From positions 206,744 to 238,743 of the forward strand of contig NZ_BBNB01000008.1 in the NCBI RefSeq assembly GCF_000759835.1: a stretch of 32,000 nt of DNA. Direction: 5' to 3'. This document shows, in pieces, positions 3,349 through 32,000 of the stretch (its first letter is position 1; each line of letters opens with the position of its first letter). The position numbers were made by a program, and so were the translations under genes. The notes beneath the pieces were generated by a model. The model did no database searches. It was not told the origin of the DNA and saw nothing but the letters and a program-made list of their open reading frames with translations. The DNA comes from Citrobacter sedlakii NBRC 105722. GTDB lineage: Bacteria; Pseudomonadota; Gammaproteobacteria; Enterobacterales; Enterobacteriaceae.

Positions 3349-3381
3349 AAAAAGCCGGATAACGTCAACGATTTATCCGGC
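3349..3381 (-). terminator. Rho-independent terminator of the small secreted protein gene
   Basis: On the minus strand: gccggataa-(10 nt loop)-ttatccggc, a perfect 9-bp stem followed by TTTTT, about 37 nt after the stop at 3418. Confidence 0.75.
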
Positions 3382-3417
3382 CCGGAAGTAATTGCGGTAC
3401 GCGGTATAACCAGGGCG

Positions 3418-3699: not shown

Positions 3700-3721
3700 C
3701 TGTTTTTCCCTCAGTGTTAAA

Positions 3722-11241: not shown

Positions 11242-12159
11242 CTACGCTCCACGATGACCGCTGTCACCTAACGTTTTCGGTTCTGCTATCGCCGGGGGCA
11301 ACATATCCGGCGCTGGCTGCGGTGGTGCAATTTCTCCAGCCATGAGTACCTCTTCAATCAGAGGGATCAGTTTCCCGGTTAGCTTGTCGCTGCGAAAAAT
11401 ATCCCGACAGGCTAGCCTTACCACCCTGTCAGGCTCAGCTGGATGACGCGCTGCAATTTCAAACGCTTTCGGTACAACCGTTTCAAACTTAATGATGTCA
11501 GCAATATCGTAAACAAATGAGAGAGGCTTACCGCTATGAATAAAGCCAATCGCAGGCGCATATCCTGCGGCTAAAACGGCTGCTTCAGTAATGCCATAAA
11601 GACAAGATGTCGCTGCGCTGATGCACTGATTCACCACATCGCCTTTCTCCCAATCTTTGGGATCATAACGACGTCCATTCCATTTCACGCCATAGTGTTT
11701 CGCCAGCAATGCGTATGTCTGCCGAACGCGAGATCCTTCAATTCCTCGTAATTGCTCAACAGAGCGGCGTGCAGGCGGCGGCTCGCGAAAACGGAGTTCG
11801 TACATTTTACGCACAACTTTCAATCGTAAATCATCGTCAAGCGCCAGCTTCGCCTGGTAAAGCAGTTTATCGGCACGCGCGCCGCCGGGCTGACCCGAAG
11901 CATAAAGACGAACCCCCGCTTCTCCCATCCAGACCAATAGCGTACCGACCGTTGACGCCAGCCTTACGGCTGCGTGAGAAACGCGCGTTCCAGGCTCCAG
12001 CATAATGCAGGCGACGGAGCCTACTGGAATATGTGTGCGTATGCCTGTCTTATCGATCAAGACAAAAGCGCCATCCAGCACATCAATCTGACCATATTGC
12101 AGAAAGATCATAGAGGTCCGATCCTTTAATGGGATCGGACTTAACGGTACGAACGTCAC
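11242..12159 (-). CDS. cas1: CRISPR-associated integrase Cas1 (type I-E)
   Basis: 305 aa with a GTG start overlapping the cas6e stop (GTGA). MTFVPLSPIPLKDRTSMIFLQYGQIDVLDGAFVLIDKTGIRTHIPVGSVACIMLEPGTRVSHAAV is nearly identical to the remembered E. coli K-12 Cas1. Confidence 0.96.
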   Translation of the reverse strand: MTFVPLSPIPLKDRTSMIFLQYGQIDVLDGAFVLIDKTGIRTHIPVGSVACIMLEPGTRVSHAAVRLASTVGTLLVWMGEAGVRLYASGQPGGARADKLLYQAKLALDDDLRLKVVRKMYELRFREPPPARRSVEQLRGIEGSRVRQTYALLAKHYGVKWNGRRYDPKDWEKGDVVNQCISAATSCLYGITEAAVLAAGYAPAIGFIHSGKPLSFVYDIADIIKFETVVPKAFEIAARHPAEPDRVVRLACRDIFRSDKLTGKLIPLIEEVLMAGEIAPPQPAPDMLPPAIAEPKTLGDSGHRGA

Positions 12160-12806
12160 TCACTGTCTCCGGGCTTTATCAGCATCAACCCACAGCCAAA
12201 TGCGCGGCTTTTACCGTATCCCTGTATCAAACGTTGCAGGAATAAGCCCGGGTCATTGATCTCCAGCGTGCCTGAATAATCCACGCTGCTAAACTGAATC
12301 GCCTGCCGGGATTTGCCGCGTATGACCTGCTGCTGTCGATACGCGTCAACGCTCGCCCCCTGTAATGAAAATCCATTACGCTCCCCCTGACGAGCTAACC
12401 ACGCTAGCGCAACCTGCTGCTGATGAAGCCAGATATCCTGTGTGTCCGGGTCAGCTTTCATTTGCCGCTTAGCATCCATCAGCAGATCGTGACGTTTTCC
12501 TGCTTTGCAAATCGTTGGATTCGCTCGCAGAGTGAAGCGCAAGCGCTGCGCTGTATGTAAGTCAGGGAAAAACGGGCGGCATTCGGTATGAAATAATTCT
12601 CTTGACGCAGGCGGATTCACCGACAAAACAAAAAAGCGAAATGCCCCTTGCACTTCCTCCCGACGGTATAAAAACTGCCGTTCCTGCTCGTCGGGAAAAA
12701 GCGCCCATAACCACTGATGCATGACATATTCGCCGCGTTCCACCATATGAAGTAATTGAGAAGGCGACAGTTGACCGGTAGAGAGCGTTATTCTTGAGAG
12801 GTACAC
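12156..12806 (-). CDS. cas6e: Cas6e/CasE pre-crRNA endoribonuclease
   Basis: GTG at 12806 is preceded by a strong aaggagg SD and gives MYLSRITL..., the family-typical N-terminus. C-terminal motif is GCGLMLIKP. The 235-aa ORF-track version adds an unsupported 19-codon extension inside cas5. Confidence 0.9.
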   Translation of the reverse strand: MYLSRITLSTGQLSPSQLLHMVERGEYVMHQWLWALFPDEQERQFLYRREEVQGAFRFFVLSVNPPASRELFHTECRPFFPDLHTAQRLRFTLRANPTICKAGKRHDLLMDAKRQMKADPDTQDIWLHQQQVALAWLARQGERNGFSLQGASVDAYRQQQVIRGKSRQAIQFSSVDYSGTLEINDPGLFLQRLIQGYGKSRAFGCGLMLIKPGDSE

Positions 12807-13534
12807 ATTTCCTCCTTGAAGATCAGTGAACCCTGGTATACGGTACGCTCGGCAAATAACCATTGCTGACGGCTTAACGGCACGTCCCGACGACGCAGGA
12901 TTTTATTTGCCACCAACCCGTCATGCTCGCCTTCCCACCAGCAGGTCGGTTGCAGTTTGGGTAACCGAATGTTGAGCCCCTGGAGTTTTTCCTGGTATTG
13001 TAACCGGGCAGTGCTTAACACATCCGGGACATTTCCCCGCAGGAGCATTGGCATCAGCGGTAACGATAACGGATGGCTTTTCCGTCCCAGATACAGTGAA
13101 AAGGTCGGGTGCTTTAGTGCGTTCTGGAGACATTCCAGCGTAAAAGGCGCCCCTGGCGTTGTAACCACCGCGACCATCCACCACGCATCGCTGTAGTAAT
13201 CACGTCGTGAGATCAGCGCACTGAGCAAGTCCGGGTCCTGCAATTCTTCGCGGCGACTGAAATACCGCACTTTACGGACCTCTTTCGGCATCTGGACGGT
13301 GTGATAATCCCTCGCCCAGCGAGGCGAGTCGCTGGCGCACAACAAAAATTGATAGTGCGAATTAAGCGCGTTCAGTTGCGTTTCGTCGTCACGATGGATG
13401 CCAAGCGCCGCAGCCAGCAGTCCCAACAGTGCAGAACGCGACGGCAGTTCATGGGTATGACGAACCTCACCAGGAGCATCCACACCCCAGGAGGCCATCG
13501 GTCCATGAAGCTGAAAAAGCAGATATTGGTTCAT
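12788..13534 (-). CDS. cas5: Cas5e/CasD Cascade subunit
   Basis: 248 aa: MNQYLLFQLHGPMASWGVDAPGEVRHT... (the characteristic GPMxSWG N-terminus). Overlaps the cas6e start by 19 nt. Confidence 0.93.
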   Translation of the reverse strand: MNQYLLFQLHGPMASWGVDAPGEVRHTHELPSRSALLGLLAAALGIHRDDETQLNALNSHYQFLLCASDSPRWARDYHTVQMPKEVRKVRYFSRREELQDPDLLSALISRRDYYSDAWWMVAVVTTPGAPFTLECLQNALKHPTFSLYLGRKSHPLSLPLMPMLLRGNVPDVLSTARLQYQEKLQGLNIRLPKLQPTCWWEGEHDGLVANKILRRRDVPLSRQQWLFAERTVYQGSLIFKEEMCTSQE

Positions 13535-13543
13535 TAAGGGTCC

Positions 13544-14602
13544 TTACGCGCAGATAAAGTCCAGCACGTCTTTCATGCTCCCTTCTTTATTCATAACGTT
13601 GAAACCTACGGATTCAGTTTGCTGCGCGTAAACAGCGTTCATGTTTTCACGTAGCGCAGTGATGCGCTGTACCGACACGTTCAGTTGGTCCGAACCGACA
13701 ATAGGTTTGTAGAATGCCGCCGCCAGTGAACGAGGCTGATCAAAGCCTTTTTCCGCCAACGCCCAGTTGGCATACGCGCGGCTGGCAAAACTGTTTTGCT
13801 TACCGGTCGGAGAGACCTTCAGCGCAGCTTCCGTAAAGGCACACAGTGTTTGATTCGCCAGTTCTTCATTACCGTCCAGATTTTTTATCAGCAGATCTTT
13901 GTCGATACAGATATAGGTATAGAACAGCGCGGATCCGAAGCCTGTCTCACCAAGATGTCCAGCCCCCGCATCCTCCTGAGAGGCCTGACGGAAGTCATCA
14001 ACCGCAGTGAAAAAATCATCTTCCACCAGCGTTTCACTTACGCCAAACGCGTGTGCAACCTGACAGGCTGCTTCGATATTGAATTCAGGTTTATTGGCCA
14101 ACATACGGCCAAACATGGCGATGTCCACCGCCATTCGATCGCGACGCAGCAATGCCAGCTCGTCGTCCGTCGGTGCGCGATTTTCTTCTGCCAGTCGGGC
14201 AGCCAATGCCTTAACCGCATCAAATTCCACCGGGCTGATATGAATAAGTTGTTCGGTTTCAGCGTTGCTTAATTGATCTTTCGCTTTTTTATCGGTTTTC
14301 ACTTTCCCAAGGTAATCTGCGATTTTGGCGGCCCACTCGATCGCATGTTTCTCTCCTGCACCCTTTTCAATCATGATCTTCGCGGCTTCGCGTCCAATAC
14401 GACTACTACGAATGCCGATATGTCCCACCAGCGCCTGTTCAAACAAAGCAGAGGTACGCCAGGTGCGTTTCAGACTTTGTGAGGAAATGCGCAGACGCGT
14501 CGCCCCGCCCAGCACAACCGTCTTTGGCGAGCCGGTGTCATCACGGTTCAGGTTAGCGGCCGGATAAGCGGTAAGGATGTGAAGTTGTATAAAGGTAGTC
14601 AT
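13544..14602 (-). CDS. cas7: Cas7e/CasC Cascade backbone subunit
   Basis: 352 aa: MTTFIQLHILTAYPAANLNRDDTGSPKT... (Cas7e signature NLNRDD). Confidence 0.95.
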   Translation of the reverse strand: MTTFIQLHILTAYPAANLNRDDTGSPKTVVLGGATRLRISSQSLKRTWRTSALFEQALVGHIGIRSSRIGREAAKIMIEKGAGEKHAIEWAAKIADYLGKVKTDKKAKDQLSNAETEQLIHISPVEFDAVKALAARLAEENRAPTDDELALLRRDRMAVDIAMFGRMLANKPEFNIEAACQVAHAFGVSETLVEDDFFTAVDDFRQASQEDAGAGHLGETGFGSALFYTYICIDKDLLIKNLDGNEELANQTLCAFTEAALKVSPTGKQNSFASRAYANWALAEKGFDQPRSLAAAFYKPIVGSDQLNVSVQRITALRENMNAVYAQQTESVGFNVMNKEGSMKDVLDFICA

Positions 14603-14605
14603 TTT

Positions 14606-15166
14606 TTATCCCTGTTGATCGTTTTTATCATTGTCGCCAGCCTGGTAGTACTCCAGCGCCCAGCGGATTCGGATGAATTCGGTTGGCCGCTGTTGGCGGC
14701 GATGGTGGTTCAGCAAATCGTCGTTCTCCTGACACCAGCGGAAAACATCTTCTGCCAGCGAAATGAGGTTCACGGTTCCCTTCAGTAGCTGAACCGCGCG
14801 GCGAAGTTGACGCAGTAACTCATCTGGCGTTTTTACCGCCGAGAGCCGTGCAAAGCGCAGCTCAGACATAACAGCGCGATTCCCGTCTTTATGTCCAAGT
14901 TGCTCCGCAAAACTCTGGCGCTCATCAAGAGATTTAACCTGTGCCGCCAGCGCCGCCGTCAGGGCTAAAGCGATAAAACGCCATTCCTTTCCCCCCATCT
15001 TCCAGAGCGTATGCGTCTGCATCAGCAGGTCACGAAATCCTTCAGACAGGTAAGCGTCCGAGAGGGTTTTACTGCGCCGTAGGCTGGCACGTAGCCCTCT
15101 TTTTTCCTGCAATGTGCCATGCCACTGACGCAGCACGGTCTTATGCTCATCCCTCAAAAAATTCAT
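14606..15166 (-). CDS. cse2: Cse2/CasB Cascade small subunit
   Basis: 186-aa basic helical protein in the canonical position between cse1 and cas7. ATGA overlap with the cse1 stop. Confidence 0.9.
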   Translation of the reverse strand: MNFLRDEHKTVLRQWHGTLQEKRGLRASLRRSKTLSDAYLSEGFRDLLMQTHTLWKMGGKEWRFIALALTAALAAQVKSLDERQSFAEQLGHKDGNRAVMSELRFARLSAVKTPDELLRQLRRAVQLLKGTVNLISLAEDVFRWCQENDDLLNHHRRQQRPTEFIRIRWALEYYQAGDNDKNDQQG

Positions 15167-16719
15167 TCAGCAGCCTCCTGCTTTTTTGAACTGGCAGCTT
15201 TTGCCCCATGCTTCCCCGCCAGGCTGGTGATTAATTTCTTACGTGCCCACATACTTTGTTTTAGATCCTTGTTCTCGTAGGGACTGATAAAAACATGTTC
15301 ATCAAAATAATGGCGGGCGAAACGCTTGATCTTTTTCTCGCATTTACGGAGTTTTTCTTCCGGGTTTTGCCCGTCTACAAGTTCTCGTACCAGCGTCAGA
15401 AAATCGCCCTGCGTGCAGTGCCAAAAATCGATATCAATGAAACTAAAATCGCCACGTGCGCCTTTGGCATCTGAAAACCAGGCTTCTTTCAGTGCGCTAC
15501 GAAGCTGAATGAGCGTTTTATTGGCCATTTGCACGGTCTTTTGCAGATCGGGGATAAGGTTTTCCGTCAACAGAAGTGGCAGGTGATGTTCATACCAGCA
15601 ACGGGCTTTCATATTTTCGAAGTCATAGCCAAAGCCCCATAAGCCAACCCTGGCGCCAGTGTCCAAATGCCCATTAAACACTCTCACCACCTGCGCGGGT
15701 GATTCGTCATTGCTTTCCGATTGGTTGCTCTGATTTAGTCCCAACCAGTCACGCCAAACCAGACCACCAGGCTGCGGTTTAACGGAAAAGAAACCGTCGC
15801 CCCCTTTTAAAGGCTTCCGATACGGTGTCAACGGATGCCGCCAGCCTTCGTAGTTGACGCCGTAGTTTTTGGTCGTCATTAAGCTCAGCAACGCGTCGCT
15901 CTCAGATTGACAGATATCGCATGTACCGATCTCCGTAATGGTGAAATCCAGCCGGATACGCCGCGGCATTCCCCAGTACGCCTGCAATTTATGCACCTGT
16001 TCTGGCGTCGTGACGTCATTTTTGCCCTCACTGGTTCGCGTGGCGGCAAGCCAGGGGAAGACGGAAGCATCATAGATCTCCGGCAGCGGAAGATTGGCCG
16101 CATCCTGCGGCATAACATTCAACCACAGTTTGCGCCAGAGTGGCGTCTGACGGTTATGCTCGTATTCGTGCAGTTCGATAAGCGTGGTCATTGGTCCGCC
16201 ACCACGCAGCCCGGTGCGATAACCTTTGCCGCCCGCTGGCGCATTCAGTTGCAGCGAAAATAAGGCCAGCGCCGCGCAGTGTGGGCAAAAACGTTCTGTT
16301 ACGCCGCGTTTGATAAAGTGGTCTTTATGTAATTTAATGGCTTGCACGCCAGGCGTTTCGGGAAGCAAAGACGCTATCAATACGTTCTCGCCCGTTAGCG
16401 GCTCAAAATCCTGCATAAATGAGGGCGTTTGTGGTCCAAACTGAAAAGCCGGTTCGATATGTGCCAGTGCGGAACGGAATTTTTCTTCTGGTAAGCCTTC
16501 GTCCCAGATGTCATCCCAGCGTTGGCGGCTATTTGGTGCAAAACTGGTTTGCAGCAGTCCCAACAAAAACTGCCACGCCGCACCTTGTAAATCCGCCCTT
16601 GACGCCGCGATATCGATAACATTCTCATTCGCCAGACAGGCTGGCGCCAGCTTGCCCTGGGTACCGTCTTTAAACCGCACTGGCAACCATGGGGTAGTAA
16701 TCAGTGAAAAATTATTCAT
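15163..16719 (-). CDS. cse1: Cse1/CasA Cascade large subunit
   Basis: ORF open to 16749. ATG 16719 gives MNNFSLITTPWLPVRFKDG..., matching the family N-terminus (E. coli MNLLIDNWIPVR). ATG 16749 would overlap cas3 by 20 nt. Either start is possible. Confidence 0.9.
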   Translation of the reverse strand: MNNFSLITTPWLPVRFKDGTQGKLAPACLANENVIDIAASRADLQGAAWQFLLGLLQTSFAPNSRQRWDDIWDEGLPEEKFRSALAHIEPAFQFGPQTPSFMQDFEPLTGENVLIASLLPETPGVQAIKLHKDHFIKRGVTERFCPHCAALALFSLQLNAPAGGKGYRTGLRGGGPMTTLIELHEYEHNRQTPLWRKLWLNVMPQDAANLPLPEIYDASVFPWLAATRTSEGKNDVTTPEQVHKLQAYWGMPRRIRLDFTITEIGTCDICQSESDALLSLMTTKNYGVNYEGWRHPLTPYRKPLKGGDGFFSVKPQPGGLVWRDWLGLNQSNQSESNDESPAQVVRVFNGHLDTGARVGLWGFGYDFENMKARCWYEHHLPLLLTENLIPDLQKTVQMANKTLIQLRSALKEAWFSDAKGARGDFSFIDIDFWHCTQGDFLTLVRELVDGQNPEEKLRKCEKKIKRFARHYFDEHVFISPYENKDLKQSMWARKKLITSLAGKHGAKAASSKKQEAAE

Positions 16720-16729
16720 TGGGGTATAC

Positions 16730-19399
16730 TCAAACCTCCGTCTTGCCAATTAAACCTTCCCTTACGGAATAGCCGCATGATGCGTCGTCAGACACCACAA
16801 TCACATTGACGAACGCCTTGTTCTGATGCTGCTTAACGCACCACTGCTGAAGCTGTTCACCTTCCAGCAAACAGAAATCCTGCGCATGTTTCTTCCACCA
16901 GCCTTCGCGTACGCGCAACAGGCTCATCTCCCAGCCCTTTTCTCCAGGAGCATAAGGAATAACCGTATCCTCGACGATCCTCGCCAGCCATAGAGCAATA
17001 GATTCCTCAGACAAACGAGTGGAGAGTTTTTCAGGCAGAAATTCGCTGCTATCCGGACTGTAGCCAGGCGCAAAATTGAGGGTATGCTGCATCGCAGACG
17101 CACGATCGCAGTAAAATTTACCTTCCTGCGCCTGCTCTGCTTTCGCAAACCCCGCAGGTATGACAACCTCTTCGCCATAAACCGATTCGATCAACAAACG
17201 GGCGGACTGCGGCATCTGAATCTTGCCTTGCATTCGCAATACGCGTTGCGTCAGCCACAGGCGGCCATGCTCGGGGTAGACATAAGCGCTGTTTCGCATG
17301 GCGGCAGAGAACCACTCTTCTGCTGGTTCGTCGTCCCATTCGGGGGCGAGGATATGCAGTACCGGTGAGGGGCGTTCGTCCTGACCGGGCATTTTGAGCA
17401 AACCGTTACAGTCGCGAATATGGCGCTGTAGTCGGCCTGCCCGCTGGATTAAAAGATCGACAGGAGCCAGATCGGAGATCATCTCGTCGACATCAATATC
17501 GAGCGACTGCTCTATAACTTGCGTCGCGATAATGACGCTTCCAGCACGTAACGAATGGCTTTTTTTGCCAAACACGCTCAGCGTGCGATCTTCGATTTTC
17601 TGACGATCGTGGAATGCAAAGCGACTATGAAAAAGCATCAGCCTTTCTGCACTCACCACGCTGTTGCCGAGCAGTTGCCGGTATGAACGGATGGCGTCAT
17701 CAACGGAATTTCGAATCCATGCAATGCACCGCCCTTCACTGACGACATCTTTAATGTGATCAATGCAGGCGAGTTCATCATGCAACCAGGCGATATTGAC
17801 GCTACGCTCAACCTCTTTACGGGTATTAACGTGCTGAGAGATAATCTCGTTTCCCGCCACTTGAGTCAGCCAGGGATAATCGTTGAATCCCAATAACGGC
17901 GCTTGTGTTTGACATTTCCCCCCTCGCGAAAAAGCCGAGACCAGCCTGTCACGCTGGCGCTGGGATAACGTTGCAGAGAGTAAAATGGTGGGGTTGCCAT
18001 CCCGAGCTTGCTTTTCAATCAGGCTTTCGAGGAGTTTCGACATCCAGGCATCATAAGCATGGATTTCGTCGGCGATTAAGACCTTATTTCTCAGTCCCAA
18101 CAGGCGGAGATTGTTGTGTTTAAATGGCATAACCGCCATCAATGCCTGATCCAACGTGCCTACGCCTACGTCAGCCAGCAAGGCCTTTTTACTGCTGTCA
18201 GCGAACCAGGCGGCGCAGCCCTGCGCAAAGGGTTGCAAGTCATCCCTTTCCTCAGAACCCGACATATCACAGGACCAGACAGACTGATTAAAATGTTCCA
18301 TCAACGCGCGAGCGCTGTGCGCCAGCACCAGACTGGGGCGCGAGCCAGGCTGATAAAGCGACAGCCACGTTTTTTCCATTCGTCCGTACATGGCATTGGC
18401 GGTCGCCATTGTTGGCAATCCGAAATAAATTCCGTTCGCTTTCCCCTCCGCCATGAGCCGATGCGCCAGAATTAACGCAGCTTCGGTTTTCCCTGCTCCC
18501 GTAACATCTTCAAGGATAAACAACTGGGCATCGGATTTATCGATATCCAGTTCAAGCGCCTTTTGTTGTAACGGCGTGGGATGCTGAATAAAAGGAAATA
18601 GGGTATTCATTCCTGAGAAGGAGGCAACAGCGGGAGAAGATGGAAAAACAGAGATCGCTTTTTCCGCGTTAATTAATGTCTGATGCCAGTACTCCTCTAT
18701 CGACATTCGCCTTGCAATGCGTGGGAAATAGCGAGTGGAAGATCCCGTCCAGTCAGCAAGAACAATTGCTGCTGAAATAAACCATGAGAGATGCTTAAAT
18801 AGATCAATTCCTTCATCATCATCCCAGAATGCAGGAACGTTAATGAGCGGGAATAATGGTTTTACCGCCAGAAGAAAGTCGTGAGCGGCCTCTTTATCTG
18901 ACGGACGGAAGTGATTCAGTTCCTGAACCGCAGCAGGAGGCCGCCCGTGGTGCCCGGTCGTTAATGGCATCCACAGCGCCACCGCGCGCTTCAGTTTGCG
19001 CAATGTCAGCGTAGACGGTGGGAGAAGCTCTGCGCATCCGCTTAGAAAATGCGTCCACAGCCAGAAACCAAGCGTTGCATGAGGGATCTTTTCATACTCT
19101 CTCGGCAGATCGTTTGAGGAGGTCAGATCCGGGTGGCAATAAAGCTGTTGAAACGAACGGGCAAACTTACCGATATCATGCCAACAAAGCAGCCAGGCAA
19201 AAAATTGTGCGGCCTGTTCAGTGCTAATTAATCCTAATTTACGAAGATAGTTATCGATAGAATAAATATTATTTTTTACCATCCAATAACCAACAGCGGC
19301 CACATCCAGAGAATGCCAACACAATAAATGGTAATCATCACCGTCGGATTTATCGCCGTTACGGGTTTTACCCCAGTAGTCAAATATCGCCACACACAC
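16730..19399 (-). CDS. cas3: Cas3 HD nuclease / SF2 helicase (type I-E)
   Basis: 889 aa. HD motif CWHDIGKF, Walker A DVTGAGKTEAA, motif II ADEIHAYD. Immediately upstream of cse1. Confidence 0.96.
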   Translation of the reverse strand: MCVAIFDYWGKTRNGDKSDGDDYHLLCWHSLDVAAVGYWMVKNNIYSIDNYLRKLGLISTEQAAQFFAWLLCWHDIGKFARSFQQLYCHPDLTSSNDLPREYEKIPHATLGFWLWTHFLSGCAELLPPSTLTLRKLKRAVALWMPLTTGHHGRPPAAVQELNHFRPSDKEAAHDFLLAVKPLFPLINVPAFWDDDEGIDLFKHLSWFISAAIVLADWTGSSTRYFPRIARRMSIEEYWHQTLINAEKAISVFPSSPAVASFSGMNTLFPFIQHPTPLQQKALELDIDKSDAQLFILEDVTGAGKTEAALILAHRLMAEGKANGIYFGLPTMATANAMYGRMEKTWLSLYQPGSRPSLVLAHSARALMEHFNQSVWSCDMSGSEERDDLQPFAQGCAAWFADSSKKALLADVGVGTLDQALMAVMPFKHNNLRLLGLRNKVLIADEIHAYDAWMSKLLESLIEKQARDGNPTILLSATLSQRQRDRLVSAFSRGGKCQTQAPLLGFNDYPWLTQVAGNEIISQHVNTRKEVERSVNIAWLHDELACIDHIKDVVSEGRCIAWIRNSVDDAIRSYRQLLGNSVVSAERLMLFHSRFAFHDRQKIEDRTLSVFGKKSHSLRAGSVIIATQVIEQSLDIDVDEMISDLAPVDLLIQRAGRLQRHIRDCNGLLKMPGQDERPSPVLHILAPEWDDEPAEEWFSAAMRNSAYVYPEHGRLWLTQRVLRMQGKIQMPQSARLLIESVYGEEVVIPAGFAKAEQAQEGKFYCDRASAMQHTLNFAPGYSPDSSEFLPEKLSTRLSEESIALWLARIVEDTVIPYAPGEKGWEMSLLRVREGWWKKHAQDFCLLEGEQLQQWCVKQHQNKAFVNVIVVSDDASCGYSVREGLIGKTEV

Positions 19400-24686: not shown

Positions 24687-24793
24687 TCCGCATTTTCCCC
24701 AGCTACCTGGCGTATAACCGGGATGTGCCGGGAGTCAACATTCCTTTACCGTCAATCTGATAGGGTTATGTGCTCTGGATAAAGGAGCACAGC

Positions 24794-26065
24794 ATGGTTG
24801 ACGATTTCGATATTATTTTTGTCGGGGCAGGGATAGCGGGAACCGCTTGTGCTTTACGTTGCGCCCGCGCCGGACTGTCGGTGCTGTTGCTTGAGCGTGG
24901 AGAACGCCCCGGCAGTAAAAACCTTTCCGGCGGACGACTCTACGCGCATGCGCTCGCCGAACTTCTCCCCCACTTCCAACGCACCGCCCCGCTGGAACGA
25001 CGAATTACCCAGGAAAACCTCACGTTACTCACGCATGACGGCGCGACAACCTACTCCAGCCTGCGTTCGGACGGGGAGTCATGGAGCCTGTTGCGCGCCC
25101 GCTTCGATCCCTGGTTTGTCGCCCAGGCGGAAGCCGAAGGTGTTCAGTTTATCAGCGGCGTGACGGTTGAAGCGCTGCATTGTGAAAAGGGCAGGGTTTG
25201 CGGCGTGATTGCTGACAACGAGACGCTGCGCGCCCGCTATGTTGTCCTGGCGGAAGGCGCAAACAGCCTTCTGGCGGAACGTTATGGTTTTTTGCCGCCG
25301 CCATCGCGAAACAGTATGGCGCTGGGGATAAAAGAAACGCTGGCGCTGGACAAACAATTGCTTGAGGAGCGTTTTCGCTTATCTTCTGAAGAAGGCGCAG
25401 CGATGTTGTTCAGTGGTGAAATTTGTGCCGATCGGCCCGGCGGAGCGTTCCTGTATACCAATCAGGACACGCTCTCTTTTGGCGTCGTCTGTCCTCTCTC
25501 CTCGCTGGCGCAGGGTGATATTCCGGCAGGCAGACTGCTGGAGCGGCTGAAAACGCATCCGGCGCTTCGCCCTTTACTCAAAGGCAGCGAAACACTGGAG
25601 TACGGCGCCCATCTGGTGCCGAAAGGCGGCCTGCATAGTCTGCCCGTGCAATATGCAGGGGAAGGCTGGCTGCTGGTCGGAGATGCGCTACGTAGCTGCG
25701 TCAATACCGGCTTCACAATCAGAGGAATGGACATGGCGCTTCTCGGCGCGCAGGCCGCGGCGCAAACGCTAATTCACGCCTGCCAGAAACGCGATCCGCA
25801 AAATCTTTTTCCGGCCTACCATCAGGATATTCAGCACAGTCTGCTGTGGGACGTTCTGCAACGCTACCGTCATCTTCCGGACCTGTTACAGCGCCCGGGA
25901 TGGTATCGTCAATGGCCCGCGCTGATGGATGATGTTTCCCGCGAAATCTGGCGTCAGGGAGAGGGACCGGTGGCCCCGTTGCGCCAGGTTGTCTGGCGTC
26001 ATCTCCGTCGTCACGGCCTGCGTCATTTAGCAGGCGATATTATCAGGAGCATACGATGTCTGTAG
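24794..26065 (+). CDS. ygcN: FixC-like FAD-dependent ETF:quinone oxidoreductase family protein
   Basis: ATG 24794 follows an aaggag SD and gives MVDDFDIIFVGAGIAGTACALRCARAGLSVLLLERGE (GxGxxG dinucleotide fold), 423 aa. The ORF-track GTG at 24770 is an unsupported extension. Confidence 0.88.
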   Translation: MVDDFDIIFVGAGIAGTACALRCARAGLSVLLLERGERPGSKNLSGGRLYAHALAELLPHFQRTAPLERRITQENLTLLTHDGATTYSSLRSDGESWSLLRARFDPWFVAQAEAEGVQFISGVTVEALHCEKGRVCGVIADNETLRARYVVLAEGANSLLAERYGFLPPPSRNSMALGIKETLALDKQLLEERFRLSSEEGAAMLFSGEICADRPGGAFLYTNQDTLSFGVVCPLSSLAQGDIPAGRLLERLKTHPALRPLLKGSETLEYGAHLVPKGGLHSLPVQYAGEGWLLVGDALRSCVNTGFTIRGMDMALLGAQAAAQTLIHACQKRDPQNLFPAYHQDIQHSLLWDVLQRYRHLPDLLQRPGWYRQWPALMDDVSREIWRQGEGPVAPLRQVVWRHLRRHGLRHLAGDIIRSIRCL

Positions 26066-26316
26066 CCCGCAACGTCTGGCGTCCCGCCAGTTTTTCCCAT
26101 ATCGTTCCCGCCAGGCAGATCGACCACGAAACGGCCGCGCGGCTGATCGCCGCCTGCCCTGCCGGGCTGTATTCCCTGTCACCGGAAGGCGAATTGCTCA
26201 TCGACTTTCGCGGCTGTCTGGAGTGCGGCGCCTGTCGCCTGTTGTGCGACGATGAAATGTTGCTACAGTGGCGCTATCCCGCGTCCGGTGCTGGCATCGC
26301 TTACCGCTTCGGCTAA
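26056..26316 (+). CDS. ygcO: FixX-like ferredoxin-type protein
   Basis: 86 aa with ACPAGLY and CLECGACRLLC cysteine motifs. Overlaps the ygcN 3' end by 10 nt, as fixC-fixX pairs do. Confidence 0.85.
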   Translation: MSVARNVWRPASFSHIVPARQIDHETAARLIAACPAGLYSLSPEGELLIDFRGCLECGACRLLCDDEMLLQWRYPASGAGIAYRFG

Positions 26317-26334
26317 TATTTATAAGGATAATCT

Positions 26335-26910
26335 ATGCCCCTGTTACACCTGCTCCGCCAGAATCCCGTCATTGCCGCCGTAAAAGATAATGCCAGCCTG
26401 CAGTTAGCGATTGACTCCGAATGTCTGTTCATCTCTGTGCTGTATGGCAATATCTGCACCATCAGCAACATCGTGAAGAAGATCAAGAATGCCGGAAAAT
26501 ATGCGTTTATCCACGTTGATCTGCTGGAGGGAGCATCGAATAAAGAGGTGGTCATTCAGTTTCTGAAGCTGGTCACCGAGGCAGATGGCATCATTAGCAC
26601 CAAAGCCCCGATGCTTAAAGCCGCGCGAGCGGAGGGCTTTTTCTGCATCCATCGCCTGTTTATCGTCGACTCCATCTCTTTTCACAATATTGATAAGCAA
26701 GTCGCGCAGTCAAATCCGGACTGTATTGAGATTTTGCCCGGCTGCATGCCAAAAGTGCTGGGTTGGGTCACGGAAAAAATACGCCAGCCGCTGATTGCCG
26801 GCGGGCTGGTCTGCGATGAAGAAGACGCGCGCAATGCTATAAAAGCCGGCGTGGCGGCGCTTTCCACCACCAATACCGACGTCTGGACGCTGGCTAAAAA
26901 GCTGAATTAG
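26335..26910 (+). CDS. ygcP: GlpP-family (glycerol-3-phosphate responsive) antiterminator-like protein
   Basis: 191 aa: MPLLHLLRQNPVIAAVKDNASLQLAIDSECLFISVLYGNI...HVDLLEG.... The length and pattern are typical of GlpP-like proteins, and the position matches E. coli ygcP. Confidence 0.8.
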   Translation: MPLLHLLRQNPVIAAVKDNASLQLAIDSECLFISVLYGNICTISNIVKKIKNAGKYAFIHVDLLEGASNKEVVIQFLKLVTEADGIISTKAPMLKAARAEGFFCIHRLFIVDSISFHNIDKQVAQSNPDCIEILPGCMPKVLGWVTEKIRQPLIAGGLVCDEEDARNAIKAGVAALSTTNTDVWTLAKKLN

Positions 26911-26950
26911 CCTCAGCGGCCGGAGGGCAAACACCCTGAGGCTACGTTTT
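26908..26950. terminator. Hairpin between convergent ygcP and ygcQ that includes both stop codons
   Basis: tagcctcag (26908-26916) pairs with ctgaggcta (26936-26944), a perfect 9-bp stem with a 19-nt loop. tttt follows on the plus strand only. Confidence 0.4.
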
Positions 26951-27796
26951 CGTACACGCCACGAGTTCCTCCAGCACCTGCGGCCAGTCATCGACGATAC
27001 CGACATCCGCCTGGGAAAAAACAGGCGCGTCGGGATCGCAATTTATCGCCACGACAAACTGACTCTGGCGAATCCCGGCCATCAACGCCGCCGCGCCGGA
27101 AGCTCCCGCCACAATACAGACATCCGGCGAAAGCAGATGGCCGGTGATGCCAACCATCCGTTCCACATCCACTCCGCCGTTCATCACCCGCGCCCGGCTG
27201 TATCCCGCCTCGGCGCGTAGCGCCTGGGCCAGAGCGGTGATTTTATCCTCTTCAACCTCGCGGCCTCCCTGCCCAACCACCAGAACATGGCTGGCCTGTA
27301 ACAGAGGGTGCCTGTTTTCGCTTTTCACGCTTTCAAGGTGTTCGAGCCAGTCAGGTGGTTCCGCCGGGACGATACGTCGTTCCGTCATAACTGGCAAAAC
27401 CGACGCTGACGCGCCCGCATCAGGCTGGCGCGCCAGTGAGAGGCACACAGGACATCCGGAGACAGACAGGGACGCTAAGAGCGCGCTCCCCCAATGTGAT
27501 TTACTCACCCGCCCTTGTTGCAGGTCTGCGGTAACCACCTGACATACGCTATCACCCCGTAGCCGCCAGGCCAGACGTGTTGCAAGCTCATCGCCGAACG
27601 AACCAGAGGGAAAGATCAGCACCCCGGCAGGCGTTATCGCCCATTGGGCGGCCAGCGCGTCGAGCACCTGTTCCGCAACCGCCGGTACGGAATCGATTAC
27701 CCAGCGCTCCACTTCCGCCGCACCGGGGGCATTTGCCGCGATCCATCCCGCCATTGCCGCACATTCTCCGGGCGTGGTAATCATTGCTATTTTCAT
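26942..27796 (-). CDS. ygcQ: Electron transfer flavoprotein alpha-subunit-like protein
   Basis: ATG 27796 overlaps the ygcR stop (ATGA) and gives MKIAMITTPGECAAMAGWIAANAPG..., 284 aa. The C-terminal half has the ETF-alpha FAD-binding pattern (VVGQGG, VAINCDPDAPVF). The 372-aa ORF-track version is an out-of-frame overlap with ygcR. Confidence 0.85.
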   Translation of the reverse strand: MKIAMITTPGECAAMAGWIAANAPGAAEVERWVIDSVPAVAEQVLDALAAQWAITPAGVLIFPSGSFGDELATRLAWRLRGDSVCQVVTADLQQGRVSKSHWGSALLASLSVSGCPVCLSLARQPDAGASASVLPVMTERRIVPAEPPDWLEHLESVKSENRHPLLQASHVLVVGQGGREVEEDKITALAQALRAEAGYSRARVMNGGVDVERMVGITGHLLSPDVCIVAGASGAAALMAGIRQSQFVVAINCDPDAPVFSQADVGIVDDWPQVLEELVACTKT

Positions 27797-28575
27797 GGCG
27801 CGCACCTCTGACGCAAATAGTCCCGCCATAAAATCCGGGCTTTTTCCTGCACCGTCGCGCCGTCGATAATTTTCGCGCACCGTCGCTGTTCCGGTCGCGT
27901 CAGCGCCAGACAATTGCGCCCCTGAGGAACCGCAATGTCGACAGGCTGGCGGATAATCTCCGCTTTGGCCGCCGCCAGGCGCTGGCGCATGCCAGGCACA
28001 GGGAGCGCCACTTCGCCACACTGTCTGACGGCGATGACCGCCGGAAGACGTACCCGGCAACGACGAAGGCCGGACTCCATTCGTTGGTCAACGCTGATAA
28101 AGGGCGCCTCAAGCGCAAAACGCGTCACCTGGCTAAAGCATGGCCACCCCAGCATTTCCGCCAGCAGAAACGGCGTTTGCCCGTTCTGCCCTTCGCTACT
28201 CTGGCATCCAGTGATAATCAGGTCGGCCCCGTGACGGTAATGCCAGTCGGCGATCTGCCCGGCGATGAATGCTGGCGCAAATCGCAGATCCGCCCCGCTC
28301 TCCAGCAGTACCGTCTTATCAAAACCCAGCGCGGAAAAATAGCGTAACCAGTGCAGCGACCGTTCATCGCCGATGTTCAGCGCCGTCAGGATCATCTCAC
28401 AACCTGCCCGGCGCTCAGCCAACAGCAATGCGGCGGCGGCCTGCTCGTCGGCGCCAGGCGAGCTGCGCAGCAAAGCGGTGTCGGGGCCGCAGGTATCCTG
28501 TGTCGCAGCCAGCCAGTCCTTTTCCGCCAGCATGCCGGAGTCCGGCTCTGCTTTAAACGCTAACAGAATGTTCAT
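27793..28575 (-). CDS. ygcR: Electron transfer flavoprotein beta-subunit-like protein
   Basis: 260 aa: MNILLAFKAEPDSGML... (typical ETF-beta N-terminal strand). Translationally coupled to ygcQ. Confidence 0.85.
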   Translation of the reverse strand: MNILLAFKAEPDSGMLAEKDWLAATQDTCGPDTALLRSSPGADEQAAAALLLAERRAGCEMILTALNIGDERSLHWLRYFSALGFDKTVLLESGADLRFAPAFIAGQIADWHYRHGADLIITGCQSSEGQNGQTPFLLAEMLGWPCFSQVTRFALEAPFISVDQRMESGLRRCRVRLPAVIAVRQCGEVALPVPGMRQRLAAAKAEIIRQPVDIAVPQGRNCLALTRPEQRRCAKIIDGATVQEKARILWRDYLRQRCAP

Positions 28576-29902
28576 TTACCCCTCCCTGTCTTTTCTCCAC
28601 CCTCCCGGCCACCGCCAGCGGCAATGCCTTCGTTTCCGGCGCCCATAGCCAGGTCACGATAAATCCAATCAGTAACACGCCCGCCAATAGCAACAACGTG
28701 ACCTGCATTCCCCATTGCGCCAGCGTCAAAGGTAACAGACCGGTGCTTATCGCAGCGCCAAGCCGACTCATCGCCGTCGCAAATCCAACGCCCAGCGAAC
28801 GAATATCAGTCGGGAAGCTTTCCGCAGGCAGGATCCCCACCAGATTGCTGACAGCAGAAATCGTGGTGCTGAACAGAACAAACAGCAGCAAAGTGAAAGC
28901 GCTGCCTGGCGGCAAGAAAGCCATCACGAACAGCGTTGCCGCAAGCAGAAGGAAACTGCCGAGCAGGAACCGACGATGCGTCAACAGATGCGTTAATAGT
29001 AGCCCCAGTAGTGCGCCGACAATTAATAGCGCATTCAGCAGCAGGCTGGCGGTAAGCGCATCCTCCAGACCAACAGTCCGGGCAATCGTCGGCAGCCAGG
29101 TATAGATAACAAACCACGGGATCACCAGGCAGACAAAGAAAACGCTGTTGAAAACAGTTCGCCGCCAGTAGCGAGCGGAAAAGAGCGTTTTAATATGTTT
29201 AGTGGATGCGGCGGCAATTTCATCGCCGGGCAGGACGTGCGGGCCAAAATAGCGATGAACCACCGCATGAGCTTCTGCAAAGCGTCCCTGGCGTATCAGC
29301 CAGCGAGGTGATTCCGGCGTTCCCCAACGAAGCAAAGTAATCAACAGTGCGGGCAACGCCGCCGAAGCAAGCAGCCAGCGCCAGGCATCCGGGCTTGCGG
29401 AAATGAAATGATGTCCAACCAGACTCGCCAGTACGTAGCCGATAGTCCATACCACGCTGAATGCTCCGAGCAGAACTCCCCGATGACGCCGCGGCGCAAA
29501 TTCAGCCAACAGCGTATGGCCGACGGAATAATCGCCGCCAAGCCCAATCCCGATGAGGATCCGTAACGCGATCAGCTGTTCCGGCGTTGAGACGAAAAGC
29601 TGCAAAAATGAAGCGATAGTGATCAGCATAAAGCTGAAGGTAAAAATCTTCTGTCGGCCGATATGATCGGACACCCAGCCCAGTATAAGGCTACCGAGAA
29701 AAAGCCCGAGCAACGCGGCTCCGCCAATCATCCCGGCCATAAAAGGCGTCAGTTGCATTGCTGACATCAATGGGATAATGGCGTAACCCACCCCACCAAG
29801 AACATATCCGTCAGTAAGATGCGCGCCAAAGGTTAACGCCGCAATACGGCAGTGAAAAGCATTTAACGGTAAGTCATCCATGCGCACCGGTGAAGTGTTC
29901 AT
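28553..29902 (-). CDS. ygcS: MFS transporter (sugar/metabolite porter type)
   Basis: 449 aa, about 12 hydrophobic segments, MFS motif A GWVSDHIGRQK. aagggg SD before ATG 29902. The 3' end overlaps the ygcR start by 23 nt. Confidence 0.88.
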   Translation of the reverse strand: MNTSPVRMDDLPLNAFHCRIAALTFGAHLTDGYVLGGVGYAIIPLMSAMQLTPFMAGMIGGAALLGLFLGSLILGWVSDHIGRQKIFTFSFMLITIASFLQLFVSTPEQLIALRILIGIGLGGDYSVGHTLLAEFAPRRHRGVLLGAFSVVWTIGYVLASLVGHHFISASPDAWRWLLASAALPALLITLLRWGTPESPRWLIRQGRFAEAHAVVHRYFGPHVLPGDEIAAASTKHIKTLFSARYWRRTVFNSVFFVCLVIPWFVIYTWLPTIARTVGLEDALTASLLLNALLIVGALLGLLLTHLLTHRRFLLGSFLLLAATLFVMAFLPPGSAFTLLLFVLFSTTISAVSNLVGILPAESFPTDIRSLGVGFATAMSRLGAAISTGLLPLTLAQWGMQVTLLLLAGVLLIGFIVTWLWAPETKALPLAVAGRVEKRQGGVNEHSVSV

Positions 29903-29923
29903 TTCTACCCCTTCATTGTCCGG

Positions 29924-29955
29924 TAAAAAAAGTGGCTTCCCGAGCGGGAAGCCAC
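29924..29955 (-). terminator. Strong rho-independent terminator between ygcU and ygcS
   Basis: Minus-strand RNA reads GUGGCUUCCC-GCUC-GGGAAGCCAC followed by UUUUUUU (10-bp GC-rich stem, 4-nt loop). It begins 8 nt after the ygcU stop and ends 21 nt before the ygcS ATG. Confidence 0.85.
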
Positions 29956-29963
29956 CTGTTACG

Positions 29964-31418
29964 TTATTTCTCGATGGGATAAATCGTCCCCGTATTCATT
30001 ATGCCGTTCGGATCAAACTGGCGTTTGAGACCTTCCAGAAGCGGCCATGCGCTGCCATGCTCCAGCTTGCTCCAGTGAACGCGATGCTTACCAATGCCGT
30101 GGTGATGCACCATTGAGCCGCCCAGTCTGATAGTTTCTTCGCAGATGATCTTATTCAGTGGATTATGGTATTTATCGATCTCTTCTTCCGGCTTACAGTC
30201 CACTACGTTGTAGTCATAGACAAAATACATATTGGTGCCGTTGATATAACTGTGAGAAGAGTGACCGCCGAGCATGGTGATATCATCCGCGTGGGGAAAC
30301 TCATTACGGATACGCCTGATCACATTTTCGTAGATCTGGTGAATACATCCCCAACCGCCCGACACTTCTGTCGTGAATCCCATATTGCCGGTTTTCAGGA
30401 TCTGCACCCGCTCAGCCGCCACTTTCTCCGGCCCCCAGTTCAGTTGATTGAACCAGTTCTCAATAAGCCTGCTGTCCACACGCTGGCACTCCGGATAGCG
30501 CGCCACGATCTCAGCAATCCCTTCACCGGTCGCTTTCGCTATCCGCGCGTTTCCCTCGGCCATAAAGATGAGTACGCATTTGCCATCGGCAAAATGGGTG
30601 AAGTGCTGGGTGCCGTCCTCGGCGTCATACAGGCGCGCAATGGAGGGCCGATATCCCTCTACCATCACATCGCGGAGGATATCGAAACCAACCTTCATAT
30701 CATCAAGGATATAGCCGTAAAAGAGATTGTTTTCCGGCGTAAATTTAAAAATTTTCACTGTGACTTCAGTGATATAGCACAGCGCGCCTTCATTACCGAT
30801 AATAATATGGCGAATATCCGGCCCGGCAGCGCGGCGCGGGACGTTCTTAATTCGGGTGACAGTTCCATCCGCCAGCACCGCTTCCAGCCCGACGACCATA
30901 TCTTCAATCGCGCCGTACAGGGTGGAAAACTGCCCAATACTGCGGGTCGCTACCAGCCCACCCATCTGAGCCAGGGGTTTAGATTGCGGCGAATGGCCGG
31001 TGGTATAACCTTTCTCACGTAGCGCGTTCTCCAGAATCTCAAGCGGAACGCCGCACTGCGCCGTCGCTTGCATATTTTCAACGTCAATGCTCAGGATCTG
31101 ATTCATCCCTGCGCCATCAAGGACAACGGAATTTTTGACTACGGTTTCCAGCCCGCCTTCGGTTGCGGATGCGCCGGTACGCGGTACGCCATTGATTTTA
31201 TGCTGGTTCATAAACGCCAGTACGCGGGACACCTGTTCTGTCGATCCCAGCTTCACGACAGCCGCGGGCAGTGGCAGCGTATAAACGCCGTGAATATCCG
31301 CATATTTGCGAAAGCGATCAATACTGTTTTTCTTTAACACCGTTTCATCGGTAATGACACGTTCTGAACCGACAATTTCTTTTAACTGGTCAACAATCGC
31401 TTCTCGAGATAAAGTCAT
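29964..31418 (-). CDS. ygcU: FAD-linked oxidase/dehydrogenase (GlcD / alkyl-DHAP-synthase-like PCMH fold)
   Basis: ATG 31418 follows a ggaagg SD and gives the 484-aa MTLSREAIVDQLKEIVGSERVITDETVLKKNSIDRF.... Nearly colinear and identical with the remembered E. coli YgcU. FAD motif PRTGASATEGG. The ORF-track start at 31442 adds 8 codons. Confidence 0.9.
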   Translation of the reverse strand: MTLSREAIVDQLKEIVGSERVITDETVLKKNSIDRFRKYADIHGVYTLPLPAAVVKLGSTEQVSRVLAFMNQHKINGVPRTGASATEGGLETVVKNSVVLDGAGMNQILSIDVENMQATAQCGVPLEILENALREKGYTTGHSPQSKPLAQMGGLVATRSIGQFSTLYGAIEDMVVGLEAVLADGTVTRIKNVPRRAAGPDIRHIIIGNEGALCYITEVTVKIFKFTPENNLFYGYILDDMKVGFDILRDVMVEGYRPSIARLYDAEDGTQHFTHFADGKCVLIFMAEGNARIAKATGEGIAEIVARYPECQRVDSRLIENWFNQLNWGPEKVAAERVQILKTGNMGFTTEVSGGWGCIHQIYENVIRRIRNEFPHADDITMLGGHSSHSYINGTNMYFVYDYNVVDCKPEEEIDKYHNPLNKIICEETIRLGGSMVHHHGIGKHRVHWSKLEHGSAWPLLEGLKRQFDPNGIMNTGTIYPIEK

Positions 31419-31480
31419 AGCCCTTCCTTCCTGATAAGTCATTCGGAATAATGAATAAAAACAGAAACCACCGCCATAAA

Positions 31481-32000
31481 TTAGCGGACCAGATAACCAC
31501 CATCGACGACCAGTAAATGACCGTTAACATAATCAGAAGCCTGACTGGCAAGGAATATCGCCGCGCCCATTAAATCCTGAGTATCTCCCCAACGATTTGC
31601 CGGGATATGATCCAACACCCGTTGATTTGTTTCCGGATTACTGCGCGTCGCTAATGTAATATCTGTTGCATAATAGCCAGGGGCAATGCCATTAACCTGG
31701 ATATTGTATTGCCCCAGTTCATCACAATATGCTTTCGTCAACCCGGCAAGCGCATGTTTAGTTGCGGAATAAGCTGGCGACCATTGCCCGCCAAGATAAG
31801 AGAACAAAGAGCAGATATTAATAATTTTACCACTATGTTGCGGGATCATTATTTTGGCAGCCTCATGGCTTAACTCAAATGCCGCAGTCAGGTTAACGTC
31901 AATCATCGGGTCCCAGTCCGCGCGGCCAAAGTCCAGTACTTTGTTCAGCTTACAAATCCCGGCGTTATTCACCAGAATATCCACGGTGCCGAAACGTTCG
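31481..32000 (-). CDS. ygcW: Short-chain dehydrogenase/reductase (KduD-like), C-terminal part; 5' end beyond the window
   Basis: The frame stays open to the window edge (...ERFGTVDILVNNAGI...). Catalytic YSATKHA (YxxxK) is present. Ends ...VVDGGYLVR. Confidence 0.85.
   Translation of the reverse strand, partial: ERFGTVDILVNNAGICKLNKVLDFGRADWDPMIDVNLTAAFELSHEAAKIMIPQHSGKIINICSLFSYLGGQWSPAYSATKHALAGLTKAYCDELGQYNIQVNGIAPGYYATDITLATRSNPETNQRVLDHIPANRWGDTQDLMGAAIFLASQASDYVNGHLLVVDGGYLVR

Follow-up and report, generated by a model that had tools for sequence, protein, structure and literature searches.

The ygc cluster of Citrobacter sedlakii NBRC 105722 poses a regulatory question: how does transcription reach the last 3 genes of an operon that stand behind what looks like an excellent terminator? 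In the 32,000-nucleotide (nt) stretch of contig NZ_BBNB01000008.1 analyzed here (positions 206,744 to 238,743 of the forward strand; hereafter the window), a minus-strand gene set runs from ygcW through ygcU to ygcS, ygcR and ygcQ, and a GC-rich hairpin with a U tract separates the ygcU stop codon from the ygcS start. An earlier note on this DNA had proposed that the hairpin is a target of YgcP, a GlpP-like antiterminator encoded in the same cluster. Comparison of orthologous loci points to a different arrangement. The hairpin between ygcU and ygcS is probably an ordinary intrinsic (Rho-independent) internal terminator whose leakiness would come from translation of ygcU, and YgcP most likely acts at a conserved motif in the leaders of ygcW and of the divergent gene yqcE.

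The hairpin at the ygcU-ygcS junction

The hairpin (29930..29957, minus strand), identified from sequence, folding and covariation, has 12 pairs formed by a 5' arm AGGUGGCUUCCC (29957-29946) and a 3' arm GGGAAGCCACUU (29941-29930) around a GCUC loop (29945-29942). Ten Watson-Crick pairs make up the stem, and its foot adds a G.U and an A-U pair. The U7 tract that follows (29925..29931) contributes its first 2 U to closing the stem foot. A 39-nt element containing the hairpin folds with −21.7 kcal/mol (z = −5.9), and none of 200 shuffled sequences folds as well; in a 10-kb scan, it ranked first among terminator-like sites (12 pairs, 7 of them G-C). It has the features expected of an intrinsic terminator: a GC-rich stem within the usual range of about 5-14 bp closed by a short, 4-nt loop, a U-rich tract directly 3' of the stem, and a conserved position 3' of a gene on the transcribed strand. 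The earlier description of a textbook terminator after ygcU is borne out by these properties. Its spacing of 8 nt from the ygcU stop is correct for the 10-bp core and becomes 6 nt for the 12-bp stem, whereas the 21 nt given for the distance to the ygcS ATG should be 22 nt (29924-29903).

Between the U tract and the ygcS ribosome-binding site, with its Shine-Dalgarno sequence GAAGGGG at 29914-29908, there is no room for a promoter, and a promoter scan of the ygcU 3' end was negative for sigma-70-like sites on the minus strand. As the earlier note had reasoned, every ygcS-ygcR-ygcQ transcript must cross the hairpin. A repetitive extragenic palindromic (REP) or enterobacterial repetitive intergenic consensus (ERIC)-like repeat, or a repeated operator, was considered as the identity of the element and rejected because the stem motif GGCTTC(N8)GAAGCC is present in one copy per locus and Rfam gave no match in the window region or in the corresponding E. 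coli region.

To follow the element across genomes, 21 orthologous loci were fetched from reference genomes, and more were found through YgcP homologues and a metagenome scan. A U-tailed hairpin stands at this place in about 17 lineages, and no locus in which ygcU is followed by ygcS lacks one. In 15 aligned orthologous ygcU-ygcS junctions, 92% of cells are paired, compared with 41-57% in slid controls; 5 of the 10 stem pairs change on both sides, and RNAalifold independently recovers the hairpin. Escherichia, Citrobacter, Klebsiella, Yokenella and Superficieibacter share the stem CGGCUUCYC / GRGAAGCCG, with compensatory changes. In more distant lineages, the stems are unrelated in sequence, and the position and the U-rich tail are retained: CCCGCGUUCUGC / GCAGAACGCGGG in Leminorella, GUGCGGCCC / GGGGUCGCAC in a metagenome-assembled genome (L028) and GGCCCGG / CCGGGCC in a soil contig (L034). 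The distance from stop codon to stem ranges from 6 to 11 nt across lineages. The quality of the U tract varies, orthologues having 4-8 U among the 8 nt that follow the stem (read by eye from the alignments), in contrast to the leader terminators discussed below, which hold runs of 7-9 T in enterobacterial genomes.

The hairpin also persists where there is no ygcS to regulate. In a close relative of the soil organism represented by L034, ygcU is the last gene, ygcS is absent, and a homologous hairpin still follows the ygcU stop codon; the Vibrio and Pantoea modules likewise lack ygcS. These cases indicate that the hairpin belongs to the 3' end of ygcU, and on this comparative sequence evidence it is best described as the terminator of a conserved ygcW-ygcU pair and not as a ygcS leader.

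Insertions have accumulated around the junction in some genera. In Escherichia, an additional 32 nt (alignment columns 18-49; L001 6243-6275) separate the conserved hairpin from the ygcU stop and form a second terminator-like hairpin, GGCAGCGUUCCG...CGGGGCGUUGCC followed by UUUU. Klebsiella spallanzanii carries, at the same place (L022 about 6812-6950), what we take from its consensus to be an ERIC-like repeat, and in C. youngae and K. spallanzanii (L006, L022) a presumably similar repeat separates the start of yqcE from its leader terminator. The ERIC-like insertions leave both the junction hairpin and the leader motif intact.

YgcP and the leaders of ygcW and yqcE

That the cluster encodes a GlpP-like protein proved correct. 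The 191-aa YgcP (26335..26910, plus strand; the last gene of a ygcN-ygcO-ygcP array and convergent with ygcQ) matches PF04309 from residue 12 to 184 and over profile positions 1-173 of 173 (E 1.5e-61), and aligns over its full length with solved GlpP structures (PDB 3KTS, E 5e-27; 1VKF, E 1e-15). Homologues in Clostridium, Sporomusa and Vibrio are 59-62% identical. By these matches YgcP is a genuine, full-length member of the GlpP family, for which RNA binding and a response to a ligand are predicted, and the ygc cluster very probably has a GlpP-style antiterminator/terminator system.

The most likely site of this system lies beyond the end of the window. All related genomes carry a conserved 75-nt motif in the leaders of ygcW and yqcE, where twin terminators far stronger than the junction hairpin precede the 2 divergent genes. 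In L030, a Logan assembly contig of the same species (15 mismatches to the window in 9098 nt; the window end corresponds to L030 position 3903), the ygcW copy occupies 3541-3616 on the plus strand, about 290-370 nt beyond window position 32000, and the yqcE copy 3340-3413 on the minus strand, the 2 leaders together lying 290-560 nt beyond that position. The E. coli copies are at L001 3832-3907 (plus) and 3630-3703 (minus). The layout is almost invariant: GUUACY - AGAGA(N3-5)GAGAAA - RGUAAC - upper stem - UUACYUUUCUY - U7-9. The upstream GUUACY is a second copy of the terminator's 3' foot and can therefore pair with the RGUAAC of the 5' arm; the resulting antiterminator stem of 6 bp has a purine loop of ~15 nt (GUUACC-AGAGAUAAUGAGAAA-GGUAAC) and overlaps the long terminator. 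Across 26 aligned leaders, pairing holds in 100% of cells for the antiterminator stem and in 99.7% for the terminator foot, and one position covaries in 3 strands between the paralogous leaders (C-G-C in ygcW, U-A-U in yqcE).

In each enterobacterial locus searched, a covariance model built from this motif (R1) gives matches of 59.8-94 bits at the 2 leaders and nowhere else. Copies also stand beside ygcP homologues in Vibrio hannami, Pantoea, Clostridium sediminicola and Thalassobacillus (34-52 bits), and leaders in distant taxa overall score 34-68 bits. In these distant taxa, the 3' foot of the terminator drifts and the 2 antiterminator strands stay invariant, so the antiterminator stem and its loop are the most constrained part of the motif. 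A metagenome scan seeded with the RNA returned 80 loci, of which 69 adjoin ygcW or yqcE homologues and 1 is a complete motif on a truncated contig; the other 10 were discarded as pattern-only matches without a terminator, 8 of them being a single marine sequence. The motif occurs twice per genome in 5064 E. coli genomes, is unannotated there and has no Rfam family. One copy, in C. sediminicola, lies between co-directional genes for an FGGY kinase and a flavin adenine dinucleotide (FAD)-linked oxidase (L025 7264-7334, minus strand), and by its position internal sites of the YgcP-associated switch would therefore exist in some organisms.

Both leader terminators are active in vivo in E. coli MG1655. 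Term-seq in LB at an optical density of 0.4 (Adams et al. 2021, PMC7815308, Supplementary file 3) recorded a 3' end 38 nt upstream of ygcW with 40,640 reads, a Rho score of 0.50 and an intrinsic terminator score of 15.8, classed as not Rho-dependent, and another 36 nt upstream of yqcE with 1,557 reads and an intrinsic score of 11.4; neither has an assigned regulatory element (PMC7815308). The yqcE/ygcW intergenic region is also a top CRP-site prediction with CRP binding reported (PMC1794230), and both genes are named in a CRP study by genomic systematic evolution of ligands by exponential enrichment (PMC3105977). The center of a perfect TGTGA-N6-TCACA in the E. coli sequence lies ~41.5 bp upstream of the predicted ygcW start, and yqcE has another CRP site in a similar place (geometry worked out by hand in both cases).

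The leaders resemble the targets of GlpP in their architecture. In Bacillus subtilis, GlpP with glycerol-3-phosphate disrupts the terminators in the 5' untranslated regions (UTRs) of glpD, glpFK and glpTQ, and the glpD 5' UTR alone confers glycerol control on other promoters (PMC9604022). YgcP and GlpP are members of one Pfam family (PF04309). In the ygcW and yqcE leaders, as in GlpP targets, promoter, short leader, long terminator and first gene follow in that order, an upstream strand duplicates part of the 3' arm of the terminator, a purine-rich GAGA segment is present, and antitermination is combined with catabolite control (CcpA in B. subtilis, CRP here). The genes served differ from glp genes, comprising a short-chain dehydrogenase/reductase (SDR), an FAD-linked oxidase, an FGGY kinase, major facilitator superfamily (MFS) transporters and electron transfer flavoprotein (ETF) subunits. 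A sequence motif common to the glpD leader (PMC9604022, Table S4) and the ygcW leader, CCWGAGAU..GAGRARAG, was rejected, because between 73 and 1040 of 2000 shuffles were as good; the likeness to the glpD leader is not significant, and we retain only the architectural resemblance. In the BglG/SacY/LicT family, the protein stabilizes an antiterminator stem (the ribonucleic antiterminator, or RAT, hairpin) that shares nucleotides with the 5' arm of the terminator. The ygcW/yqcE leader motif, though not the junction hairpin, has the same stem-sharing logic, with an unrelated protein family and a different RNA sequence.

Measured against this motif, the junction hairpin lacks all of its invariant parts. 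Inspection of the sequence found no GUUACY strand, no complementary upstream strand, no AGAGA(N3-5)GAGAAA loop and no GAGAAA/UUUCUC foot at the hairpin; the lone GAGAAA in the window consists of the ygcU codons for E-K and reads GAAAAA in other genera. With filters off, R1 reported nothing at the hairpin among window matches at E up to 10, and in L030 it scored the hairpin at 7.9 bits (E 4.4), compared with 78-94 bits at the leaders of Enterobacteriaceae. Folding for an alternative antiterminator structure upstream of the hairpin, which the earlier reading implied, gave none in single sequences or with RNAalifold, and 5' of the hairpin lies ygcU coding sequence with variation at synonymous sites. 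Leader copies lie behind a promoter and before a first gene; the junction site is intercistronic, and the promoter scan before it was negative. The lack of stem sequence conservation in distant lineages further argues against sequence-specific recognition. One feature is shared: the arms AGGUGGCUUCCC / GGGAAGCCACUU resemble the upper stem of the ygcW leader terminator of the same species, AGGUAACUUCCC / GGGAAGUUACCU (L030 about 3565-3600), from which they differ at 2 compensatory pairs and one further position in the 3' arm. This likeness may reflect partial duplication or chance, and because the yqcE leader has a different upper stem, the upper stem is not what defines the motif. By its sequence, the junction hairpin is placed outside the YgcP-associated class. 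GlpP-type control of the cluster, as the earlier note had it, is thus probably right in kind, given a leader motif that occurs together with ygcP, and wrong in place, since that motif is found at the ygcW and yqcE leaders.

Read-through into ygcS and competing explanations

If the hairpin terminates transcription of ygcW-ygcU, the expression of ygcS-ygcR-ygcQ depends on read-through, and the position of the ygcU stop codon offers a mechanism. For the phage lambda terminator tR2, termination is almost fully repressed in vivo when a stop codon lies a few base pairs upstream: efficiency was about 90% with the stop 28 bp ahead of the terminator and dropped below 10% with the stop at 5 bp (Li et al. 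2016, PMC4824070), so that a stop 5-9 nt ahead largely disables termination in vivo. About 10 nt past the A site are shielded by the ribosome at the stop codon, and closure of the stem needs 10-15 nt of free RNA (PMC4824070). With the ygcU stop only 6-8 nt from the stem, read-through is best explained by ribosome occlusion, and no antiterminator is needed. The junction resembles the tR2 constructs in placing a GC-rich hairpin and U tract a few nucleotides after a stop codon, at a distance within the range of near-full repression in vivo with no dedicated factor. It differs from those plasmids, and from the pyrBI leader-peptide attenuator (cited in PMC4824070), in being a natural junction inside a catabolic operon that is known from sequence.

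Under such a mechanism, the operon would be controlled at 2 levels. The whole unit would be induced upstream, from a CRP-dependent promoter, with transcription then stopping at the long leader terminator before ygcW (and at its twin before yqcE) unless ligand-loaded YgcP relieved the stop by stabilizing the 6-bp antiterminator stem with its AGAGA..GAGAAA loop; the metabolite would in this way gate the unit at the ygcW leader. Farther along, in Escherichia, Citrobacter, Klebsiella and relatives, ygcS-ygcR-ygcQ would be reached directly behind the ygcW-ygcU terminator with no promoter of their own. A ribosome halted at the ygcU stop would cover the 5' arm and block closure of the hairpin, so that a polymerase followed closely by that ribosome would read on, and coupled transcription and translation of ygcU would lead into the translationally coupled ygcS-ygcR-ygcQ. 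Uncoupled or untranslated transcripts would terminate and keep a protective 3' hairpin. The expected outcome is more ygcW-ygcU message than ygcS-ygcR-ygcQ message. We consider a translation-gated, leaky internal terminator the probable mechanism at the ygcU-ygcS junction. Metabolite-gated expression of the transporter and ETF genes, as foreseen in the earlier note, may then hold indirectly through the ygcW leader and not through the junction hairpin.

Several observations weigh against this account. The insertion in Escherichia puts the conserved hairpin 40 nt from the ygcU stop, so occlusion alone cannot account for read-through in that genus. The E. coli Term-seq tables hold no entry for ygcU, ygcS or ygcP (PMC7815308), probably owing to transcription having stopped at the leader in laboratory media. 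In the window species, the terminator is near-ideal (12 bp, U7), and substantial termination is possible despite occlusion. The occlusion effect itself was measured for lambda tR2 on plasmids and is sequence dependent at intermediate distances (PMC4824070). For the upstream part of the scheme, binding of YgcP to the leader motif is a prediction, and the likeness of the motif to the glpD leader lacks statistical significance.

Other explanations account for part of the evidence. The one closest to our own is a post-transcriptional role, in which the hairpin would block 3'-5' exonucleases and, after cleavage in the spacer, stabilize ygcW-ygcU over ygcS-ygcR-ygcQ. Intercistronic stabilizing hairpins such as the malE-malF REP element can raise the level of the upstream segment of a message. 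Like that element, the junction hairpin is a stable stem-loop between genes of one operon; it differs in being single-copy and in having a terminator-type U tail. The great stability of the hairpin, the AU-rich spacer downstream, and a stem that varies less than the U tract (down to 4 U of 8 in several species) are all in keeping with such a barrier, but a pure stability element needs no U-rich tail, and one is present in every lineage, even those with unrelated stems. We regard this role as doubtful as the primary one; it is compatible with leaky termination, because a terminated transcript gains the same protection. Less probable still is that the hairpin is simply the efficient end of an operon, with ygcS-ygcR-ygcQ essentially silent or decaying, or served only by an unrecognized promoter inside ygcU. 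The hairpin does act as an operon-end terminator, to judge by its position, in the relative that has no ygcS downstream; the ETF genes evolve much faster than their neighbors (YgcQ 55-69% and YgcR 57-79% identical to other genera), and in Leminorella the ETF-beta and yqcE genes are split. Decay is at odds with the intact frames of ygcS, ygcR and ygcQ, the invariant ribosome-binding site and the good conservation of YgcS, and a promoter inside ygcU, where no sigma-70-like site was seen in the 3' end, would still lie behind the hairpin.

That the junction hairpin is itself a direct, effector-dependent target of YgcP, letting polymerase into ygcS-ygcR-ygcQ, we now consider quite improbable. In its favor are a full-length GlpP-family protein encoded in the cluster, a terminator that is strong on paper, a ygcS without its own promoter, the resemblance of its upper stem to that of the ygcW leader, and the internal copy in C. 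sediminicola, which makes internal sites possible in principle. The invariant parts of the motif are nevertheless all missing, the score is 7.9 bits, the shared upper stem is dispensable for the motif and different in the yqcE copy, the junction stems of Leminorella, L028 and L034 are unrelated, and no competing fold is predicted in the upstream ygcU sequence with its synonymous variation. To our knowledge, GlpP-type action, as studied in Bacillus, is local and not processive (PMC9604022). The hairpin also departs from GlpP targets in layout: it stands between two cistrons, with neither a promoter ahead of it nor the leader features. A mainly translational role, in which the U tract and the adjoining UUACC would pair with the ygcS ribosome-binding region and tune read-through transcripts, appears very remote. 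It derives from a possible weak second helix (29903..29928, minus strand; low confidence), in which UUUUACC (29922-29928) pairs with GGUAGAA (29903-29909), the core being UUACC with GGUAG; the loop encloses most of the Shine-Dalgarno sequence, and the last 2 G of that sequence (29908-29909) are paired. The helix is 87.6% paired in the junction alignment, appears in the predicted folds of most close orthologues and in that of RNAalifold, and shows one compensatory change in a Klebsiella sp. (ACC to AUC with GGGU to GGAU); the spacer UACCGGACAAUGAAGGGGUA is nearly invariant across genera. With only 5-7 pairs and a 12-nt loop it covers no more than two Shine-Dalgarno G, it is unrecognizable in Leminorella or L034, and it leaves the GC-rich hairpin unexplained. 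The helix may add some translational tuning of ygcS, a reading of the model in which we have low confidence.

The start of ygcS has further peculiarities. The spacer UACCGGACAAUGAAGGGGUAGAA (29903-29924, minus strand) and the first ygcS codons AUGAACACUUCACCGGUGCG hardly vary in nucleotide sequence from genus to genus, a constancy beyond what coding constraint by itself would produce. A mini-open reading frame of 3 codons, AUG AAG GGG UAG, overlaps the ygcS Shine-Dalgarno sequence; in 2 metagenome-assembled genomes it has 5 codons and overlaps the ygcS AUG, and in C. amalonaticus and C. braakii it is deleted. In E. coli, the RefSeq annotation, made with the Prokaryotic Genome Annotation Pipeline, starts ygcS at an upstream ATG with a 21-nt gap to ygcU (L001 6259-6330, GF124.3; the same in L002). 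The 24 added codons span the two intergenic hairpins and show no conservation beyond Escherichia; the ygcS start that is conserved is the ATG behind GAAGGGG.

The ygc cluster and the meaning of its RNA elements

The plus strand carries cysJ, queD, ygcN, ygcO and ygcP in this order, and the converging minus-strand set consists of ygcQ, ygcR, ygcS, ygcU and ygcW. On the minus strand, the window end cuts ygcW, which encodes an SDR and of which the 3' part is present (31481..32000). The gene for the FAD-linked oxidase YgcU (29964..31418; 484 aa as called in L030; Pfam PF01565 and PF02913) ends in the stop TAA at 29964-29966, and its open frame extends to 31442 (492 aa). ygcS encodes an MFS transporter of 449 aa (28553..29902; start ATG 29900-29902). 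Behind it lie ygcR (ETF beta, 27793-28575) and ygcQ (ETF alpha, 26942-27796); the frames of ygcS, ygcR and ygcQ overlap and are intact across genera, and the ribosome-binding site is strong and invariant. Directly after the ygcQ stop, a weak terminator-like hairpin, GCUGAGGCUAAUUCAGC followed by U5 (26901..26917, minus strand), overlaps the 3' end of ygcP and is probably the end of the ygcW-to-ygcQ unit. The gap between the convergent ygcP and ygcQ is only 31 nt (window 26901-26941), and the sole terminator-like hairpin for the unit is this weak one, which runs over the last codons of ygcP.

Evolutionary rates within this single cluster are very uneven. Across ygcU and ygcS, the window is ~76% identical in nucleotides to E. 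coli by blastn, and megablast against E. coli genomes gave no match. When window 24770-31442 is compared with other genera (loci L001-L023), YgcP (91-99% identity), YgcW (92-98%) and YgcU (89-96%) evolve slowly, YgcP being the most conserved protein of the cluster. YgcS is 85-90% identical in most genera and 73-80% in 2 more distant lineages; YgcN (68-86%) and YgcO (62-76%) are more variable, and the ETF subunits YgcR and YgcQ, with the values given above, evolve fast. In one metagenome-assembled genome (L019), ygcN and ygcO were undetectable and ygcP is retained. Elsewhere in the window, clustered regularly interspaced short palindromic repeat (CRISPR) arrays with the type I-E repeat CGGTTTATCCCCGCTGACGCGGGGAACAC occupy 9720-10666 and 11242-19399. 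The minus-strand open reading frames beside them have sizes that fit a type I-E cas operon, and the largest, of 889 aa and 528 aa, were taken as cas3 and cse1 from size and position.

On the wider picture, drawn from sequence comparison, we are evenly divided: the 75-nt leader motif would be an undescribed cross-phylum RNA-protein switch with YgcP binding the RNA, and the junction hairpin would be a second checkpoint, gated by translation of ygcU, that fixes how much enzyme is made relative to transporter and ETF proteins. The junction hairpin is unannotated and bears on operon annotation and on the stoichiometry of ygcW-ygcU relative to ygcS-ygcR-ygcQ. The leader motif is a candidate for a new cis-regulatory RNA family absent from Rfam, and likely YgcP targets are the 2 leader terminators, which work in vivo in E. 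coli K-12 and have had no regulator assigned to them. The motif opens a testable route to the function of ygcE, yqcE, ygcW, ygcU, ygcS and ygcP. If the proposal is true, Proteobacteria would gain in YgcP their first GlpP-type antiterminator whose target is defined, and the YgcP switch would explain 2 orphan 5'-UTR 3' ends in E. coli Term-seq.

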